Shown: positions 34,001 through 60,142 of the stretch, piece by piece
Layout of the letters: every line of letters starts with the position of its first letter
Position numbering within the stretch: the stretch's first letter is position 1
From: an uncultured Candidatus Saccharibacteria bacterium
GTDB taxonomy: Bacteria > Patescibacteriota > Minisyncoccia > Phycocordibacterales > UBA5272
NCBI GenBank assembly: GCA_964510805.1
Contig: CAZEDG010000001.1
Coordinates: forward strand, 48,227-112,226
Reading direction: 5' to 3'
Length of the DNA stretch: 64,000 nucleotides
Notes under the pieces: generated by a model
Told to the model about the DNA's origin: nothing
What the model saw: only the letters and a program-made list of their open reading frames with translations
Databases searched by the model: none
Made by a program: the position numbers and the translations under genes

Positions 34001-34408
34001 ATGTCAGTAGAAACAAAAAATCGTTATATTGAAGCAGTTGGTCGTCGTAAGACTGCGGTTGCTCGTGTACGTATCACACCTTCAACAAAAGCTTCTTTTC
34101 TTATCAATGAAAAAGATGTAAAGGATTATTTCCCTACACATGAGCTTCAGACTATCTCACAAGAAGCTATCTCTAAGTCAGAGATTGGTGAGAAGTTCAC
34201 TGTTACTGTTCATGTAAATGGTGGAGGTATCCATGCGCAAGCAGAAGCGATTCGTCACGGTCTTGCAAGAACTCTTGTTCTTCGTGATGAACAAGTGAAG
34301 AACGCTCTTAAGAAGCTTGGCTTCCTTAAGCGTGACCCTCGTCAGGTTGAACGTAAGAAGTTCGGTCTCAAGAAGGCTCGTAAGTCTCCAACCTGGTCAA
34401 AACGATAG
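34001..34408 (+). CDS. rpsI: 30S ribosomal protein S9
   Basis: Ends with the conserved ...KKARKSPTWSKR. Confidence 0.9.
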   Translation: MSVETKNRYIEAVGRRKTAVARVRITPSTKASFLINEKDVKDYFPTHELQTISQEAISKSEIGEKFTVTVHVNGGGIHAQAEAIRHGLARTLVLRDEQVKNALKKLGFLKRDPRQVERKKFGLKKARKSPTWSKR

Positions 34409-34530
34409 CAAAACTATCCCATCTACTTTGTCGAAACCCCGATTTTGTCGGTCGTCGTACTACCAAGTACGACTTCCTCCAAAATCGGGGTTTCTTCGCG
34501 TATACGGGCAGTTTTGTATCGTTTTGTGTA
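34397..34530 (+). mobile_element. ~130-nt MITE-like element overlapping the last rpsI codons
   Basis: Terminal inverted repeats caaaacgatagcaaaac / gttttgtatcgttttg around a long nested hairpin (gaaaccccgattttg...caaaatcggggtttc). Absent from the downstream duplicate copy. Confidence 0.35.
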
Positions 34531-34613
34531 AGCGTTAAGAGTTTCGCTTTACTTATATTTTCAAAAACACTTATCATTTTACGGTTAAGTGGTTTTGTTA
34601 TATATTTAAATAT

Positions 34614-36074
34614 ATGAAAAAATCTTTTTCTGTTTCATTAATCTTGTTTGTAATGTTATTTGCTTTAGTGACTATTGTTTATATTGTAAATAAAAATAAC
34701 ATTAGAGAACTCTGGGCTGATACCACGAAAGGATTGGTAGGGGCTAAAAAAATACAAGCATCAAGTTCTGCTGAAAGTAGTTCTATTTCTACTGCTGTAG
34801 AAATAGAAAACCCTGAATTGAGGACTGATTTAGTGCTAATGAACCAAATAACAGTTAATGCTAAAATAGAAAACCTTGAAGAAGCAAGTGATGCCGCAAA
34901 AGCATATTTAGGTACAATTTTATTGCTGTCTTCTGGGGATATTGCTTATATAGTTAAAGCTAATCATAAAAGCTCATTATTTTTAAATAATGAAAAGCTG
35001 AAAGAAGAAGGCGTTTCTTTTGTGAAAGAAATAGCAAAAAATTTAGTATATCTCGTTACTGATTTTAAAAATGATCAGGAGTTTTTATTTTTTGGAAGAA
35101 ATTGGGTAGTAGTGGCACCAACAGGACTTTTCACTATCTCTGACGTGCAAGAAATAGATGGTGATATTTCCTATGTTTTTAATAGTAAAAATTTTCAACA
35201 AAAAATCCTTTTTTATAAAGGAAAGAAAATTATAGAAGCCCCATATATAAAAAATGTTAAAAAAACAAGTGGCGGTTTCTCATATATAACTTCTGAAAGC
35301 AGAAAAATCGGAGATACCTTGTTTTATAATGATCAAAAGGTTCTCTCTGCTCATGAAATTCTAAGTTATTTAGAAGTTGGAGATAAACTTGCTTATGTTA
35401 CTTTTGGTTATCTCGACAAGGAACATACTCCAAGTGAAGGGTTTTTTGCTAGTGATTACACAACGAAAGAAACTCTTTTTTATGATGGTAAAAAAATTAT
35501 TACAGATGATTCTATAGAGATATATAACATCTCTAACAAGTTGGCTTATGTGGTAAGTACTAAATATGGTAAAAAAAATCTTTTTTATAATAATAAAAAA
35601 ATAGTAACTGCAGATAATATTACTGATATTAAACCAGTCGGAAATAAGATATCTTATGTTATAAGTGATTATAACGCTGACAAGAAGAAGCTTTTTGTTG
35701 GAGATGATCTTATTGTTACAAAAAATAATATAAATTATATAGATTATATTAATGTTAAAGAAATTAATGGTAAAATCCTTTATAGTGTTCGAGATAATTT
35801 GACAGAAGATATTGTAACTTTTTATGACTCAGAAATGATTGGATCAAATATTGATTTCATGAAAATAATTTCAAGTAATATTGATAACGGACTTTGTTAT
35901 ATTATTTTTGATAAAACCACTCTGAAAAATAGCCTTATGTGTAATAAAAAAATAATAACAGAAAATGTAAGTGATTTTAGGGTGAGTGATATCTCTTCTT
36001 CTACATTTTTTATTTTAAAAACAGAAGAAACAGCAAGCTCTACAATTTTATCAGTTTATAGATTAACTTTATAA
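34614..36074 (+). CDS. membrane-anchored tandem-repeat (beta-propeller-like) protein, very AT-rich
   Basis: N-terminal TM; about 8 repeats of roughly 40-45 aa with core K.LFY.GKKI.T...I....KL.YV; GC much lower than flanks. Confidence 0.5.
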   Translation: MKKSFSVSLILFVMLFALVTIVYIVNKNNIRELWADTTKGLVGAKKIQASSSAESSSISTAVEIENPELRTDLVLMNQITVNAKIENLEEASDAAKAYLGTILLLSSGDIAYIVKANHKSSLFLNNEKLKEEGVSFVKEIAKNLVYLVTDFKNDQEFLFFGRNWVVVAPTGLFTISDVQEIDGDISYVFNSKNFQQKILFYKGKKIIEAPYIKNVKKTSGGFSYITSESRKIGDTLFYNDQKVLSAHEILSYLEVGDKLAYVTFGYLDKEHTPSEGFFASDYTTKETLFYDGKKIITDDSIEIYNISNKLAYVVSTKYGKKNLFYNNKKIVTADNITDIKPVGNKISYVISDYNADKKKLFVGDDLIVTKNNINYIDYINVKEINGKILYSVRDNLTEDIVTFYDSEMIGSNIDFMKIISSNIDNGLCYIIFDKTTLKNSLMCNKKIITENVSDFRVSDISSSTFFILKTEETASSTILSVYRLTL

Positions 36075-37572: not shown

Positions 37573-37620
37573 ATTTTTTCTATTAACTATCAACCATTAA
37601 CTATTAACTGAATTTATATT

Positions 37621-39501
37621 ATGTCAAAAATTATCGGAATCGATCTTGGAACAACTAACTCAGCAGTTGCGATTATCGAAGGCGGACAGCCAAAAATTAT
37701 TGAGAACCTAGAAGGTAACCGTACAACCCCTTCTGTTGTTTCTGTTAACAAGAACAATGAACGTTCTGTAGGGCAGATTGCGAAGCGTCAGGCTGTGACT
37801 AACCCTAAGGATACCGTATACGGTGTTAAGCGCTTTATGGGGCATTCATATTCTGACAAAGAGGTACAGTCTGATATTCCTCGTGTGCCGTATGCAATCA
37901 AAAAAGGTGACAACGATGGAGTGCTTATTACTCTTGGTGGTAAAGATCTTCGTCCTGAGGAAGTTTCTGCGATGATTCTTCAGAAGATTAAGGCTGATGT
38001 TGAGGCTAAGCTTGGGGAGAAGGTGACAGAAGCGGTAATCACGGTTCCTGCGTACTTCAATGATACCCAGCGTCAAGCTACTATTGATGCAGGTAAGATA
38101 GCTGGTCTTGATGTTAAGCGTATTATTCCTGAACCAACAGCTGCAGCGCTTGCGTACGGCTTCAACTCACAGAAGAATGAGAAGCTTGCAGTGTATGACT
38201 TCGGAGGAGGAACTTTTGATATTTCTATTTTGGAAGTAGGTGATGGTGTTGTTGAGGTTAAGTCTGTCGACGGAGATTCTCATCTTGGTGGTCGTGACAT
38301 TGATCAGAAGTTTGTGCAGTATATTGCAAGTGAGTTCAAGAAGGATCAGGGTATTGATATTACCGGAGACCCTCTTGCGCTACAGCGTCTTGATGAAGCT
38401 GCGGAGAAGGCAAAGCATGAACTTTCTACACAGATGGAAGTGGAGATTAATATTCCATTTATTACCTCAGGAGCAGATGGACCTAAGCACCTTCTTATGA
38501 AGATGACACGTGCAAAGCTTGAGGAACTTGCGAAGGAATTCGTAGATCGTTCTATTGAGATTACACGACGAGCACTCGAAGCTTCTCCATTTAAGAAAGA
38601 AGAGATCAATCAGATCGTGATGGTTGGAGGCCAGACAAGAATGCCGATGATCGTAGAAGCGGTTAAGGCGCTCTTCGGCAAGGAACCTAATCGTTCTATT
38701 AATCCAGATGAAGTAGTTGCTCTTGGCGCAGCAGTACAAGCAGGAGTACTTCAAGGGGATGTAAAGGATGTACTCCTTCTTGACGTGATTCCACTTTCTC
38801 TTGGTATTGAGACTATGGGTGGTGTTGCAACTAAGCTTGTAGAAAAGAACACAACTATTCCAACTGCTAAGTCACAAGTGTTCTCAACTGCATCAGATAA
38901 CCAGACTTCTGTTGAGATTCATATTACACAAGGTGAACGTCCACTCGCTTCTGATAATAAGTCACTCGGACGGTTTATTCTCGATGGTATTCCACCTGCA
39001 CCACGCGGTATCCCTCAAGTAGAAGTAACCTTTGATATTGATGCAAACGGTATCCTAAATGTTAAAGCAAAGGACAAGACTTCAGGTAAGGAACAGTCTA
39101 TACGTATCGAGGCTTCATCTGGTCTTTCTGATGATGACATTAAGCGTATGCAACAAGATGCTGACGCTCACGCCGAAGAAGATAAGAAGAAGATGGAACT
39201 TATTGAGACTAAGAACATGGCTGATGCTATGGTCCATACCGCTGAGAAAGCGCTTCGTGACGCAGAAGGTAAGATTCCTGATACGCTTAAGACCGAAGTA
39301 GAGAAGTCTATTGCTGATCTTAAGAGCTCAAAAGATTCTACTGATATCGAAGTAATCAAGAAAGCAACCCAATCTCTTTCAGATACCATGATGAAGATCG
39401 GTGAAGCAATGAAGACTTCGAATGATAATGCTACACAGACTGAATCACAGGCAGAGGGTTCTACCGAAGAACCAAAAACTGACGGAGAAAAGCAAAGCTA
39501 A
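37621..39501 (+). CDS. dnaK: molecular chaperone DnaK (Hsp70)
   Basis: [18 protein letters not shown]; full length. Confidence 0.95.
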
Positions 39502-55875: not shown

Positions 55876-57183
55876 ATGAACCGCTCTTTGTATATTCTTA
55901 TCATATGTCTTGTCTACACCATCTACCATGGTCCATTAGAGCGTGTTGTTGCACAAGAGGCAACACAGAACATGGAGCAGACCGCTGATCAATTAAAAGG
56001 TAATCTTGATCAGCTTTCTAAACAGATCAAAGATCTTGATGCTGAGATTAAGGCCTATACTACAAAGATCAGTAAGACTCAAGGAGAAGCTAAGACTCTC
56101 AAGCAAGCACTTGCAAAGCTAGAAGAAAGGAGAAAAGGTCTTGCAAAAGATATTGCGTATACAAAACTTCGAATTACAAAAGCAGAAGAAAATATTTCTT
56201 TCACAAAAACAAAAATTAAGAATACAGAAGATATTCTTGAGAGAACAAGAGCATCTCTTTCTGAATCCCTTCGTGTTCTTGTTCGTAACGAAAGCACACT
56301 TCCGCGCTTCATTGATGCGCTTGGAAATGGAGCTCACATCTCTGATTCTTTAGATACCGCAAAGAGAACTACTGATATTACTCAAGCAATTAACGAACGA
56401 GCGAGAGCTCTTGTTGATGTAAAGACATCACTCGCTATCCAAAAAGCATCGTATGAGCAGAATAAAAATACACTCCTTGATCTTAACGAAACACTTACCG
56501 AGCAAAAACATTTGGTAGAAGAAACTTCTAAGGATAAGAGCAGTCTCTTACAACAAACTCAAAGCAAAGAATCTGCATATCAGAAATTAGTTGCCGAACG
56601 TAAGAAGAAGAAAGGTGATCTTGAAGCTGAAATGTCTGACATCGAAGCAAAACTAAAAACAATTGTTGATGTGAGCAAGCTTCCTAAATATGGATCAGGG
56701 GTTCTTAAGTATCCGCTTACGAATCCAATCATTACGCAGTATTTTGGTAATACTCCTTTTGCTAGTCAAAATCCACAAGTGTATAACGGTTCTGGACATA
56801 ACGGTATTGATTTTGGTACTCGTGTAGGAACGCCGATTCTCTCAGCGCTAGAAGGAACGGTTCTTGGAACAGGTAATACCGATGCTTCATGTTCTGGAGT
56901 TTCTTATGGTAAATGGGTGCTTATAAAACACCCAAATGGTCTCACATCTCTTTATGCGCACCTTTCTTCTATTCTTGTCAAAGAAGGAGATAGAGTTGCC
57001 ACATCACAAAAGATTGGTCTCTCAGGTAATACAGGGTACAGTACCGGCCCTCATCTTCATTTTACAGTGTATGCATCGGACGTTGTTCAGATTACAAGTT
57101 ATCGAAGTAAGGTATGCGGTACTAATATGACTATGCCAGTTGCTCCTCGTGCAGGATATCTTAACCCGCTTACCTACTTGTAG
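55876..57183 (+). CDS. M23 (LytM) peptidase with N-terminal coiled coil, EnvC-like
   Basis: Signal/TM, long coiled coil, GHNGIDFG...HLHFTV M23 motifs. Confidence 0.8.
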   Translation: MNRSLYILIICLVYTIYHGPLERVVAQEATQNMEQTADQLKGNLDQLSKQIKDLDAEIKAYTTKISKTQGEAKTLKQALAKLEERRKGLAKDIAYTKLRITKAEENISFTKTKIKNTEDILERTRASLSESLRVLVRNESTLPRFIDALGNGAHISDSLDTAKRTTDITQAINERARALVDVKTSLAIQKASYEQNKNTLLDLNETLTEQKHLVEETSKDKSSLLQQTQSKESAYQKLVAERKKKKGDLEAEMSDIEAKLKTIVDVSKLPKYGSGVLKYPLTNPIITQYFGNTPFASQNPQVYNGSGHNGIDFGTRVGTPILSALEGTVLGTGNTDASCSGVSYGKWVLIKHPNGLTSLYAHLSSILVKEGDRVATSQKIGLSGNTGYSTGPHLHFTVYASDVVQITSYRSKVCGTNMTMPVAPRAGYLNPLTYL

Positions 57184-57213
57184 AACTCTCTAGAACTTTT
57201 TATACTAAGTAGT

Positions 57214-57321
57214 ATGATTACCTTAACAACACCAGCAACAATTCTCTGCTTTCTTATCGCGTTTATAATAGGGGGCTTAGTAGGGGGTATAGGGGCTTGG
57301 AAGCTTGTTGAAGCTAAATAA
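57214..57321 (+). CDS. 35-aa single-TM hydrophobic peptide
   Basis: MITLTTPATILCFLIAFIIGGLVGGIGAWKLVEAK; TATACT -10 upstream; paralogous to the next ORF. Confidence 0.3.
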   Translation: MITLTTPATILCFLIAFIIGGLVGGIGAWKLVEAK

Positions 57322-57327
57322 ATCGCC

Positions 57328-57429
57328 ATGCTTACTTTTACCATACCCGCATTCATACTTTTCTTAGTAACTTTTTTTTGTGGAGGTATTATTTTTGGTG
57401 TATGGATACTTCTCTATAAAATTAAATAA
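57328..57429 (+). CDS. 33-aa single-TM hydrophobic peptide, tandem paralog
   Basis: MLTFTIPAFILFLVTFFCGGIIFGVWILLYKIK; begins 6 nt after the previous stop. Confidence 0.3.
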   Translation: MLTFTIPAFILFLVTFFCGGIIFGVWILLYKIK

Positions 57430-58229
57430 AGTAGTTAGGATTTTTTGAATTAAAAAGAATCAGAAGAGATAGAATAATACTCAGTACTTAAGTTGTTGTG
57501 GGCATAGAGCGGAAAAGCTAGGTAAAGGCTTCTTTTGTGGATATAATGTCGTAAAAGATATATTGTGCGACATTAGCTATATATAAAACCCCTGCCAAAA
57601 ATATAAGAAAAACCATACAAAATAAAGGAGTTATGTTTTGTCTCTTACCTTAACATTTTGTTATTTTTTCACACCAGCACACTACCCTGCTGTTCATTAC
57701 TTTTTTAGCATACTTCTTTTTAGTATTGTTTAAATGAATTTGGATTACCTACTACCAGATCCTTCAAGCTGTTCATCGTGGCCCGCCCTTGATTCTGTGA
57801 CCCTAAGGATGCTACATATTCAAGAATAGAGTCATAGGATACTATACCCTTAGTGGCGTATGAGGCTTTTTAGGTTAGATTAAGTATATATAGGCTTCTC
57901 TACTTGATACATTCTATGAACACCAAAGATCCTTATAAGGCTTCATTGTATATAGTTTACCCTCCGTTAACTTCCTCATTCTTTATTAGAAAATTTTATT
58001 CGTGTATGTTTTTTTGTTTAAAGGTTTATAGAATATTATTTTCATTGTATGAACCTTCAGCTCACTTTCTGGGTGTTGGACAATTAAGACCTTTTACCTC
58101 TAAGTTATGTATAAGACAAAACCTACTACAAACTATTAGATAAAACACAATAGTTTATTTTATATTATAAAATAAAGAAAATAGTTGAGATTGCTCTAGA
58201 TCTTGATTTTTATTGCTTAAGGTTCTTGC

Positions 58230-58832
58230 TTGTGCTATAGTTCCGAGATAAAGTTCTTTTTAGCAACCTACATGAATGGAGGTTTTGCGATGGATCACAA
58301 GTTTCTAGAACTACGGGGTAGAATTCTTACACCTTACAACAAGACTCCTGAAGAGATGTTGGAGTTCCCCTTCCTTGTCTCTATTGTTGGCTCGTACCGA
58401 AGAGGAGTTTTTTTTCAGACATCACTGCTAGCTTCTCTCCTTTTTGAACTTTCAGATGTTGGCTACCGAGGATATTTTTTCTTCACAAGAGACCCATTTG
58501 TTGAAGGTGATCAAACACTTCCGCAAGGATGGTCTACTGACGCCGTGCGAACGGTACTGGAAAAATCTATTCCTTTGATCTGGAATGAATATAGTCTTGA
58601 TATCAGTGATTTCGGGTATCAGACATTTCTTTGGATGCTAAATCATAACTCTTTCTCCGCCGGAGATCCTCAAAACCCTGTCACTGACACAAGAGAAGTA
58701 TCTGAGATGGGTGAGAAGATGAGGAGTCTCCTCGAACAAGAAGGAGTCATCAGAACAGAGGACGTGCAGACCAGTCATGCAGATCTTCTGATTAAAAGAA
58801 TTCAACGTGACACCTATCGGGTACGTCACTAA
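58230..58832 (+). CDS. hypothetical protein; start uncertain
   Basis: ORF only; internal Met candidates are MNGGFAMDHK and MDHKFLEL. Confidence 0.3.
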   Translation: MCYSSEIKFFLATYMNGGFAMDHKFLELRGRILTPYNKTPEEMLEFPFLVSIVGSYRRGVFFQTSLLASLLFELSDVGYRGYFFFTRDPFVEGDQTLPQGWSTDAVRTVLEKSIPLIWNEYSLDISDFGYQTFLWMLNHNSFSAGDPQNPVTDTREVSEMGEKMRSLLEQEGVIRTEDVQTSHADLLIKRIQRDTYRVRH

Positions 58833-58834
58833 AA

Positions 58835-58870
58835 AACAACCAAACGGGGGCGCTTGGTTGTTTTTCTTTT
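58835..58870 (+). terminator. bidirectional rho-independent terminator
   Basis: aacaaccaa-acgggggcgc-ttggttgtt flanked by A- and T-runs. Confidence 0.6.
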
Positions 58871-58876
58871 ATAAAT

Positions 58877-60142
58877 TTATTCACAATTCCCTTTGAATGT
58901 CGCAAGAAGTTCTTCTGTTGTGATGATAGAGCTTTCTCCTCCTTTTCTTTCTTTGAGCTCAACTCCCCCTTGTGCAAGTGATTTTTCTGATACAACTACA
59001 CGCATAGGGATACCAATGAGATCACTATCAGCAAATTTTTCACCAGCACTTAAGTCTCGATCATCAAAGAGGACTTCAACACCCCTCTTGGTCAAAGTAC
59101 TGTAGAGTTCCTCTGCTTGCTTGTATGCATCAGTATCTTTATTTTTTGCAAGTGTAAGAAGATGAAGCGAGAATGGAGCAACTGCTTCTGGCCAAACAAG
59201 ACCTTTATCGTCAGCCAGAACTTCAGCAATGACTCCCATGACACGTGCAGGACCGATTCCGTAAGAACCCATCCAGACAGATTGTTTCTGACCTTGCTCA
59301 TCTTGGTAGTAGAGATCAAGCGCACCAGAAAATCTTGTTCCGAGGTTAAAGATATTTCCTACTTCAGAAGCTTTTGCAACTCTAAGGTCAGACATCGCTA
59401 CACCGAGATCAGCAAGAACTTCATCCACTAGAACTTCTTTGTTGATTGCAATTTTTTTACCATCATGAATATAAATTTCATCTTCGCCTGCGTCACAGAT
59501 GGTTTGGAATTCATGAGAATATTTAGAAAAGATACCACCAGAAGCAAAGGTAACATAGGTCATATTTCCGATGCCTAGTCGATTAAATATCTGCACATAA
59601 GCATTCTTTACTTTTTCGTAGTAAGTTTCTTGCGCTTCTTGTGAGGTACAAAAAGAGTACAGATCTTTCATGATGAATTCCCTTGTTCTCATGATTCCAG
59701 ACTTTGCACGTGTCTCATTTCTAAATTTTGTTTGGAATTGATATACGTATCGAGGAAGCTCCTTGTAGCTACGAACAAAGTTCTTCATCATTGCCGTAAT
59801 TGGTTCTTCGTGGGTAACGCCAAGACCAAGAACTGTTTCATTTTTGAGTTTTGTTTTGAACCATACATCAACGACATCGTCACTCCATCTTTCGGTTTGT
59901 TCCCATACTGCCTTATCTTGCAGTGCAGTCATACTTATCTCTTGACCGCCTATAGCATTCATCTCTTCTCTTATGATTGAAATTATATTGTTAAGTGTTC
60001 TAAGACCAAGAGGAAGAAAGGCATACACCCCTGCCATTTCTTTATGAATAAAACCGGCACGGATAAGAAGCTCGGCGTTCTTGGATGTTTCGTCAGAAGG
60101 AGCTTCTTTTCTTGTTTTTGTAAATAAATGTGATTGTCTCAT
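58877..60142 (-). CDS. proS: prolyl-tRNA synthetase, short form without editing insertion
   Basis: Class II aaRS core with C-terminal anticodon-binding domain; full-length ProRS similarity. Confidence 0.9.
   Translation of the reverse strand: MRQSHLFTKTRKEAPSDETSKNAELLIRAGFIHKEMAGVYAFLPLGLRTLNNIISIIREEMNAIGGQEISMTALQDKAVWEQTERWSDDVVDVWFKTKLKNETVLGLGVTHEEPITAMMKNFVRSYKELPRYVYQFQTKFRNETRAKSGIMRTREFIMKDLYSFCTSQEAQETYYEKVKNAYVQIFNRLGIGNMTYVTFASGGIFSKYSHEFQTICDAGEDEIYIHDGKKIAINKEVLVDEVLADLGVAMSDLRVAKASEVGNIFNLGTRFSGALDLYYQDEQGQKQSVWMGSYGIGPARVMGVIAEVLADDKGLVWPEAVAPFSLHLLTLAKNKDTDAYKQAEELYSTLTKRGVEVLFDDRDLSAGEKFADSDLIGIPMRVVVSEKSLAQGGVELKERKGGESSIITTEELLATFKGNCE

Follow-up and report, generated by a model that had tools for sequence, protein, structure and literature searches.

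A dif-like 28-bp palindromic site and a family of small membrane-peptide genes at a probable replication terminus in a genome of the candidate phyla radiation

The longest interval lacking an open reading frame (ORF) of at least 100 amino acids (aa) in a 64-kb stretch of DNA from an uncultured bacterium of the candidate phyla radiation (CPR), hereafter the window, is found at positions 57184-58229 (1,046 bp); the next largest is of some 500-550 bp. It starts directly behind the gene of an M23 cell-wall peptidase, carries two tandem genes for small membrane peptides, which we call pepA and pepB, and contains a 28-bp palindromic site whose layout resembles that of dif, the chromosome dimer resolution site. 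We consider it likely, judging from sequence comparisons, that this gene-free DNA belongs to the replication terminus and carries the dif site of the lineage. An earlier description of the locus, made from the letters alone (the sequence-only reading), had drawn attention to the peptide genes and to the gap, and overlooked the main feature, a 28-bp palindrome located where the genes change strand. The local gene order is MurG, GltX, the coiled-coil M23 peptidase, pepA, pepB, the non-coding stretch, a 180-aa gene on the plus strand and prolyl-tRNA synthetase (ProRS), with the features placed as follows.

55876-57183, plus strand: gene for a coiled-coil and M23 (LytM-type) peptidase (Pfam PF01551 over residues 307-400, E = 1.2e-28)
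57201-57206, plus strand: TATACT, a -10-like hexamer 7 nt 5' of the pepA ATG, with no Shine-Dalgarno sequence in between
57214-57321, plus strand: pepA, an ORF for a 35-aa single-pass membrane peptide (MITLTTPATILCFLIAFIIGGLVGGIGAWKLVEAK), with orthologues at the same position in 10 other loci
57328-57429, plus strand: pepB, an ORF for a 33-aa paralogue of pepA (MLTFTIPAFILFLVTFFCGGIIFGVWILLYKIK), with 18 orthologues
57546-57573, plus strand: dif-like site ATGTCGTAAAA-GATATA-TTGTGCGACAT (left arm 57546-57556, centre 57557-57562, right arm 57563-57573)
57574-58130, unstranded: AT-rich, ORF-poor spacer holding islands i and ii
57591-57594 and 57639-57647, unstranded: island i, CCCC and TGTCTCTTA respectively, conserved in relatives
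approximately 57836-57849, unstranded: island ii, AGGATACTATACCC, represented in relatives by a TAGAGGATACTACCTACGTCT-like block in mid-spacer
58131-58160, unstranded: island iii, AACTATTAGATAAAACACAATAGTTTATTT (consensus of relatives AACTATTAGATATAGCAGAAAGTATAAAT), near the proS end of the spacer
58290-58832, plus strand: 180-aa gene between island iii and proS
58877-60142, minus strand: proS, prolyl-tRNA synthetase (ORF and Pfam match), opening a block of minus-strand genes

The site has an 11-6-11 layout, in which two inverted 11-bp arms enclose an asymmetric 6-bp centre and 10 of the 11 arm positions pair (one of them as G:T). It is single in the window even when three mismatches are allowed. 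Two sets of loci were used to gauge its conservation: 38 related loci retrieved with the M23 peptidase as an anchor (M23 identity 36-78%), and at least 120 metagenome contigs retrieved by the 28-bp site pattern alone. The relatives are metagenome-assembled genomes labelled Paceibacterota, Patescibacteria or Parcubacteria. When positions 57430-58875 were compared with the related loci, one short segment proved to be 85-100% identical in almost all of them. The site is near-invariant in 33 of the 38 loci, occurs once per locus and keeps a constant orientation relative to the M23 gene (33/33); the pattern-found contigs likewise hold one copy each. An ungapped stack of the copies gives the consensus GTCG[T/C]AAAAG[A/G]TATATTGTGCGAC[A][T] with sharp conservation edges at ~26-28 bp, and conservation ends as abruptly there even where the M23 proteins are only 37-50% identical. 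Identity to the window's copy across the 33 loci is 97% for the right arm, 97% for the centre and 86% for the left arm.

Two observations on assembly and synteny touch the site itself. In the Logan assembly SRR12487046, contigs of this organism break exactly at the site, one ending at window position 57574 (L002) and the other starting at 57546 (L187), with a 29-base overlap; the break likely reflects either an identical 28-mer common to several co-occurring genomes or variable junctions. Furthermore, the left side of the site, with its M23 gene, is constant, while gene content on the right differs by lineage, so that the site marks a synteny breakpoint. Right-hand genes encode Cas4-like proteins with a C-terminal cysteine motif (L026:4762-5964, L028:2328-3548 and L029:7625-8818 among the loci listed), a helicase-like P-loop NTPase of ~500-560 aa (L022:7643-9322 and L024:7262-8782 among the loci listed), MarR-like and DoxX-like proteins and unique ORFs; these labels were assigned by eye rather than by a family-library scan.

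The palindrome invites an explanation at the level of RNA, and the sequence-only reading had suggested that the gap might hold a non-coding RNA (ncRNA). The palindrome and its surroundings would then be a promoter followed by a small structured ncRNA or riboswitch-like leader, beginning at the GTCG...CGAC hairpin and extending ~100-200 nt rightwards, possibly with a loop pairing between TAAAAGA and TCTTTTA. Such an element would fit the nhmmer alignments, which reach 100-200 nt past the core in close relatives, the TATAAT-like hexamers on both sides of the site, and a TGTC(T)TTTA motif, which the 13 closest sequences carry ~70 nt downstream and which is the complement of a part of the palindrome. 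In distant genomes, however, conservation ends at 28 bp. Rfam gave no match at the gathering score in the whole window, and none above chance level at E ≤ 10 in 57100-58400. RNAalifold, applied to the plus strand right of the site, predicts the palindrome alone with zero compensatory pairs, folding energies are no better than those of shuffled sequences (z = +0.33 and +1.30), and there is no conserved downstream gene to regulate. Within the arms, outer left-arm changes in three loci (L035, L036 and L037) are unaccompanied by compensating right-arm changes, and positions 2 and 27 of the site vary independently among 118 metagenome copies, which together argue for a protein-bound DNA site and not an RNA stem. 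We therefore regard the ncRNA as very improbable.

The position of the site is the second line of evidence for dif. Left of the site the window's ORFs amount to 47.6 kb on the plus strand against 4.2 kb on the minus strand, and the first genes to the right, from proS onward, lie on the minus strand. Over the 28 2-kb bins up to 56 kb, GC skew ranges from -0.014 to +0.217 and is positive in 26, and the cumulative G-C maximum of the window falls at 57567, inside the site, on a broad plateau. The same arrangement recurs in both locus sets. In 33 M23-anchored loci, genes left of the site total 255.5 kb on the plus and 7.9 kb on the minus strand, and those on the right 45.9 kb and 89.0 kb, respectively; left skew is positive in all, and right skew drops in all with a usable right flank. 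The corresponding totals in 120 pattern-found contigs are 243.9 and 28.3 kb on the left and 90.8 and 241.3 kb on the right, with a mean skew of +0.066 and -0.042. Thirty loci have flanks of at least 4 kb on both sides; the median distance between their skew maximum and the site is 7 bp, and in 19 of them it does not exceed 1 kb. Convergent gene orientation and a skew maximum point to a replication terminus; an origin was rejected as a candidate, since genes converge here and cumulative skew is maximal, not minimal. The window and both locus sets, which are independent of each other, show the terminus position and fixed orientation expected of a dif site, though over short flanks. L037 comes from a complete chromosome (617,472 bp) and has its site at ~305.7 kb, or 49.5% of the length. 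This mid-chromosome position is suggestive only, since it would speak for a terminus on the condition that the numbering of the record begins at the origin.

A third line of evidence comes from mobile elements. Filamentous phages that lack an integrase borrow the host XerCD recombinases at dif, leaving a full and a degenerate copy of the site. The 19-mer core of the site is present in 26 IMG/VR viral contigs, of which two, L058 (2193-2220 and 7606-7633) and L062 (2060-2087 and 7492-7519), hold two direct copies 5.4 kb apart. The first copy is complete in both, while the second keeps GATATA and TTGTGCGAC next to an unrelated left arm (CGCACAAAAAA or TGTACAAAAAA). The 5.4-kb insert encodes a Zot-like ATPase (PF05707, phrog_197), a rolling-circle replication initiator (PF23343, phrog_3419) and a DUF2726 nuclease-like protein, and no recombinase was found among its seven gene-strand ORFs of at least 77 aa scanned against Pfam and/or PHROGs; it is flanked by MurG on the plus strand and a DUF3048 protein on the minus strand. 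By analogy, we take the segment to be an integrase-less inovirus prophage, the layout of which carries the signature of host-Xer-mediated integration. The ~400 bp right of the two copies are mutually related, and a 77-78-aa ORF located there is lost after the second copy in L058, which suggests that remnants of earlier insertions may persist or accumulate beside the site. The use of the site as an attachment site by recombinase-less elements was hence seen in these two contigs, which carry the same site, and not in the window. A BLAST search of the site against GenBank phages gave no significant match. Filamentous phages known to exploit Xer at dif include CTXphi, VGJphi, TLCphi and XacF1 (PMC5666396, PMC7307601). 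Inoviruses have been reported in the CPR by Roux et al. 2019 (PMC6813254), in the main text of which the word dif is absent.

Fourthly, recombinase genes adjoin the site in some relatives. Xer homologues were sought by tblastn with an E. coli XerD sequence, a query validated by its match in L102, and full-length relatives were detected near the site in several contigs. This contig encodes a 309-aa Xer-family tyrosine recombinase (L102:1775-2704, plus strand) 290 bp from the site (L102:1465-1492), between a phosphotransacetylase gene and gyrA. The protein has SAM-like and catalytic integrase domains (Pfam PF02899 and PF00589), and its best NCBIfam scores, 242.6 bits for XerC, 239.1 bits for XerD and about the same for XerA, all remain below the curated cut-offs. 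L127, L080, L152 and L142 likewise have Xer-like genes no more than ~1.5 kb away from the site.

A protein other than Xer may of course bind the 28-mer: it could be a Ter-like fork-arrest site, a terminus-organising site, an attB for element integrases or another regulatory target. The similarity to canonical dif is at background, the window has no Xer gene, and two viral contigs with the site (L042 and L061) have a tyrosine recombinase nearby, all of which would be in keeping with such a role. Against this, known fork-arrest and terminus-organising sites are multi-copy and this site is single per locus; a recombinase-less inovirus lying between a full and a half-degenerate direct copy bears the mark of host Xer; and Xer-family genes adjoin the site in several chromosomal contigs. 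We judge the other-protein explanation unlikely and return to that of a dif site.

Several points weigh against assigning the site to dif. Firstly, the sequence itself is no guide. With dif seeds of E. coli (GGTGCGCATAATGTATATTATGTTAAAT), B. subtilis (ACTTCCTAGAATATATATTATGTAAACT) and F. alni taken from PMC3025954, the site scores 16/28, 18/28 and 12/28, respectively; ten other window positions reach 18/28 against B. subtilis dif, which makes this similarity background, and the canonical TTATGT.AA.T arm is absent. Similarity to these three sites was rejected as a scanning criterion, as it fails to single out the 28-mer. Secondly, no Xer recombinase was found in the window with the XerD query, nor any Xer, integrase or FtsK among 20 window ORFs scanned against Pfam. 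Thirdly, on flanks as short as these GC skew cannot be separated from gene orientation. In an independent contig of the same organism the genes return to the plus strand ~6.9 kb right of the site, where skew is mixed, and in five loci (L014, L015, L018, L019 and L038) the right-flank genes are all on the plus strand, though skew still drops. Fourthly, the single-copy counts cover chromosome fragments, and the prophage lies in viral contigs (L058 and L062) that may belong to another host taxon. Lastly, a plain dif does not account for the three islands conserved in the spacer. With similarity at background level, the assignment is carried by the architecture of the site, its conservation, copy number and position, its use by phages and the recombinase genes beside it; the claim weakened is that of descent from canonical dif, not that of a dif-like function.

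A separate sequence in the window deserves mention in this connection. Positions 37602-37629 on the plus strand (TATTAACTGAATTTATATTATGTCAAAA) resemble the canonical XerD arm TTATGTCAAAA and reach 22/28 if any of the three seeds may match. They lie just 5' of dnaK, well within the region of positive skew, and the resemblance is probably due to chance.

Taken at its likely value, the dif assignment would make the locus the meeting point of the two replication arms of a small Paceibacteria chromosome. Xer-type tyrosine recombinases would bind the two inverted arms of 11 bp each and carry out strand exchange over the 6-bp centre, turning chromosome dimers into monomers at cell division. Xer binding and catalysis, and with them dimer resolution, are what we infer from sequence, and the predicted role of the site is in dimer resolution controlled by FtsK and catalysed by Xer. 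Integrase-less filamentous phages would insert at the site because it is invariant and always available.

The DNA between the site and proS bears out part of what had been said of it. The stretch is indeed rich in AT, its GC content of 28-35% comparing with 38-44% for the flanks and ~39% for the window, and its size is, as had been stated, exceptional. It was described as free of ORFs of 60 aa or more over 57430-58229, which does not hold strictly: a 79-aa ORF with a TTG start occupies 57904-58143 on the plus strand. This ORF has no relative in any locus compared, no PHROG match and nothing credible in Pfam or NCBIfam, and is probably not a gene. The non-coding stretch measures 860 bp (57430-58289) if the downstream gene begins at the ATG at 58290, the more likely start, which gives the 180-aa form found in the protein database. 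ARAGORN found no tRNA or tmRNA, a scan for consensus promoters and terminators returned sites no commoner than in shuffles, and tblastx against all loci gave no match of the kind expected if the stretch were a known gene disrupted by a frameshift. Elsewhere in the window, another island of low GC (31.7% against ~40%) at 34001-36000 holds a 486-aa ORF (34614-36074) without a Pfam match.

The spacer is no random filler: its counterparts between site and proS in 10 close relatives measure 588-801 nt, have 25-33% GC and hold the same short islands. Three such islands, in an otherwise unalignable spacer, are common to L003-L012, L021 and L040. The CCCC and TGTC(T)TTTA elements lie within ~85 nt of the site in close relatives. 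Both the window and 12 close relatives have island iii, in plus orientation, at a distance of 528-736 nt to the right of the site; matches to a looser pattern in L013 and L071 are probably due to chance. A hairpin flanked by runs of A and T stands beside island iii in 4-5 of 13 sequences. The combination of island and hairpin as a ~65-nt minus-strand small RNA with a TATACT promoter was rejected, as it fits 4-5 of the 13 sequences and not the window's copy; RNAalifold on the minus strand of island iii found no consensus structure, and the two alignments examined for covariation (A3 and A4) have zero compensatory pairs. At island i, a mini-ORF (57638-57733, plus strand) has its start codon fused to the conserved TGTCTTTTA, reading (A/T)TG-TCT-TTT ('MSF...'), with AAGGA ~10 nt upstream. 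Its length ranges from 4 to 38 codons among species; this inconstancy led us to reject a conserved protein, and the mini-ORF resembles a leader mini-ORF rather than a protein gene. The ~860 bp around the site may thus be described, with caution, as non-coding terminus DNA with three clade-conserved islands, into which a lineage-specific 180-aa gene would have been inserted between the last island and proS. In the broader proposal set out below, the spacer could carry fork-arrest sites, accessory sequences for the control of recombination, or a short RNA transcribed on the minus strand from island iii onward.

A decayed mobile element and an integration hotspot had also been proposed for the gap. 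The former would have the AT-rich stretch and the 180-aa gene as its remnant, possibly besides a dif site, and several features would suit it: the low GC content, the related ~400 bp and lost 77-78-aa ORF beside the sites of the two prophage contigs, and the isolation of the 180-aa gene. A search of 5.8 billion proteins found only this gene itself, it has no Pfam, NCBIfam or PHROG family match, and unrelated ORFs of 184 and 203 aa occupy its position in L003 and L012, where most relatives have none. On the other side, no second half-site (up to 4 mismatches) is present in 57000-59200, 57574-58876 has no tblastx or blastn similarity to any of 186 loci, viral ones included, neither the 79-aa ORF nor the 180-aa gene has a PHROG match, and the first ~560 nt of the spacer keep their length and their three islands syntenically in 12 relatives. 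The unrelated 180-203-aa ORFs all lie between island iii and proS, so that the part prone to variation and insertion is 58165-58870 and not the DNA adjacent to the site. A remnant in the window is accordingly a minority possibility, though one to be kept in mind. The hotspot came closest among the options then listed, in that a dif-like site used by integrase-less inoviruses is present; the insertions themselves were seen in other contigs.

The two peptide genes are unrelated to the dif-like site except by position. The sequence-only reading was accurate on their coordinates and on their paralogy: the products of 35 and 33 aa are single-pass and hydrophobic, and share 50% identity with 16 invariant columns. 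Their consensus is M(I/L)TFTIPAF, a hydrophobic transmembrane helix, then G...G.W....K.K. At least 24 of the 38 related loci have one or two tandem ORFs of 31-38 aa immediately 3' of the M23 stop codon, so that the peptides, whose conservation had been put up for checking, are kept in at least 24 related species. Among 19 pepB-type sequences the stop follows right after codon 33 in 16, the remaining three having 32, 34 and 36 aa. Pairwise differences at codon positions 1, 2 and 3 are 33, 18 and 49% for pepB-type and 32, 21 and 47% for pepA-type sequences; with the fixed length, this is a coding signature and indicates genuine genes. The TATACT hexamer, correctly noted before, recurs 6-10 nt 5' of the first peptide ATG, with no Shine-Dalgarno sequence, in most related loci. 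Because it lies so near the ATG, the pepA messenger RNA would be leaderless or near-leaderless.

Neither pepA nor pepB has a family match in Pfam or NCBIfam, nor anything credible in PHROGs. A profile search of 1.84 billion representative proteins returned one true relative only (P0001, 45 aa), the exact pepA sequence is absent from records as a called gene, and in the JGI annotation of the identical contig (Ga0490044_000384) both peptide genes are missed and an antisense ORF of 60 aa (57174-57356, minus strand) is called instead. For these reasons, that is, the lack of a Pfam or NCBIfam model, the single relative and the JGI miscall, the pair is to be seen as an unannotated and uncharacterised family of small membrane peptides. 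The M23 proteins of peptide-bearing species are only 53-78% identical, yet the place of the peptides after M23 is fixed; their distribution is strictly syntenic and apparently reflects vertical inheritance. The M23 protein, whose N-terminal part has weak coiled-coil-type Pfam matches, is the product of the last large plus-strand gene and ends a cluster of cell-wall and division genes after MurG and GltX. On the far side of the site, proS is kept in 14 relatives and is followed in the window, likewise on the minus strand, by an RseP-like M50 protease, RRF and HolB. Our best guess is that the peptides may act in the envelope alongside the M23 cell-wall hydrolase; that only position ties them to the peptidase counts against this part of our account. 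We picture pepA and pepB as vertically inherited membrane-peptide genes that would be expressed from the TATACT promoter as a leaderless messenger.

Peptides of this kind recall type I toxins or bacteriocins, as the sequence-only reading had proposed. The size of 33-35 aa, the single hydrophobic helix, the basic C-terminus and the tandem paralogues would all agree with such a function, and beyond size and hydrophobicity nothing specific speaks for it. Type I toxins typically show a patchy and often multi-copy distribution, which was not found here; the fixed synteny after M23 across at least 24 species suggests vertical descent, and a strictly syntenic, apparently vertical distribution argues against both toxin and bacteriocin. 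The neighbourhood shows neither a leader or double-glycine motif nor any gene for a modification enzyme, a transporter or immunity, and no antisense RNA is evident at pepA and pepB, where it was sought only through consensus promoter scans. In the more distant L026-L036, the position after M23 is taken by proteins of 78-119 aa with an N-terminal transmembrane helix (for example MMNQQGGLIKLIILIIVVIFILSYLG...) and no Pfam match. A toxin or bacteriocin function therefore appears quite unlikely.

A broader proposal may be put forward tentatively, and in its entirety we think it rather less probable than not by a clear margin: the 28-mer would be an undescribed, sequence-divergent dif of Paceibacteria and related CPR lineages, perhaps served by one Xer; the ~550-700-nt spacer with its islands would be a functional part of the terminus; and filamentous phages would lysogenise these cells by hijacking the site. 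The motif, the phage link and the peptide family all appear to be undescribed. A survey of dif sites covered 16 phyla, none of them from the CPR (PMC3025954), and none of the papers searched links dif to this bacterial group. If correct, dif as a defined motif would show where replication ends in uncultivated bacteria known almost only from metagenome-assembled genomes, and could help to check the completeness and orientation of assemblies. The 28-mer would offer a concrete substrate for the question of how ultra-small bacteria resolve chromosome dimers, and its use would account for the lysogeny of these bacteria by integrase-less filamentous phages. The peptides would add a small membrane-peptide family, missed by standard gene calling, beside a cell-wall hydrolase gene.

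Comparison with known systems places each of these elements. Like type I toxins and small membrane regulators, pepA and pepB encode 33-35 aa with one transmembrane helix, a basic C-terminus and a G-x-x-x-G-like motif, and are missed by gene callers. Unlike them, they show strict synteny with a cell-wall hydrolase gene in many species, share an invariant N-terminal M-x-T-F-T-I-P-A-F and have no Pfam or NCBIfam model. The prophage-like element of L058 and L062 agrees with CTXphi, VGJphi, TLCphi and XacF1 in having a Zot-like ATPase and a rolling-circle Rep, no integrase, and a place between a full and a one-arm-degenerate direct copy of the site, and like other Xer-exploiting phages it sits where flanking genes converge. 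It was seen in those two contigs, outside the window.

The site itself shares with the dif of XerC/XerD systems its 28 bp, the inverted 11-bp arms, the AT-rich 6-bp centre, the single copy, here counted per locus, and the place at the shift point of GC skew, as well as the unequal conservation of the arms, the Xer-family recombinase sometimes found nearby and the use by integrase-less phages. It departs from canonical dif in that the TTATGT.AA.T arm is replaced by TTGTGCGACAT, and in its symmetry: the palindrome lies at the outer arm positions here (GTCG/CGAC), the inner ones being different, and at the inner positions in canonical dif. Near-symmetric arms could mean that one recombinase serves the site, and single-recombinase systems, namely XerS/difSL of streptococci and lactococci, XerH/difH of Helicobacter and Campylobacter, and the archaeal XerA/dif, were compared. 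As with xerS and xerH, a recombinase gene lies 0.3-1.5 kb from the site in L102, L127, L080, L152 and L142; unlike in those systems, such adjacency is exceptional here (5 of ~150 chromosomal loci), and the site measures 28 bp against the 31 bp of difSL.

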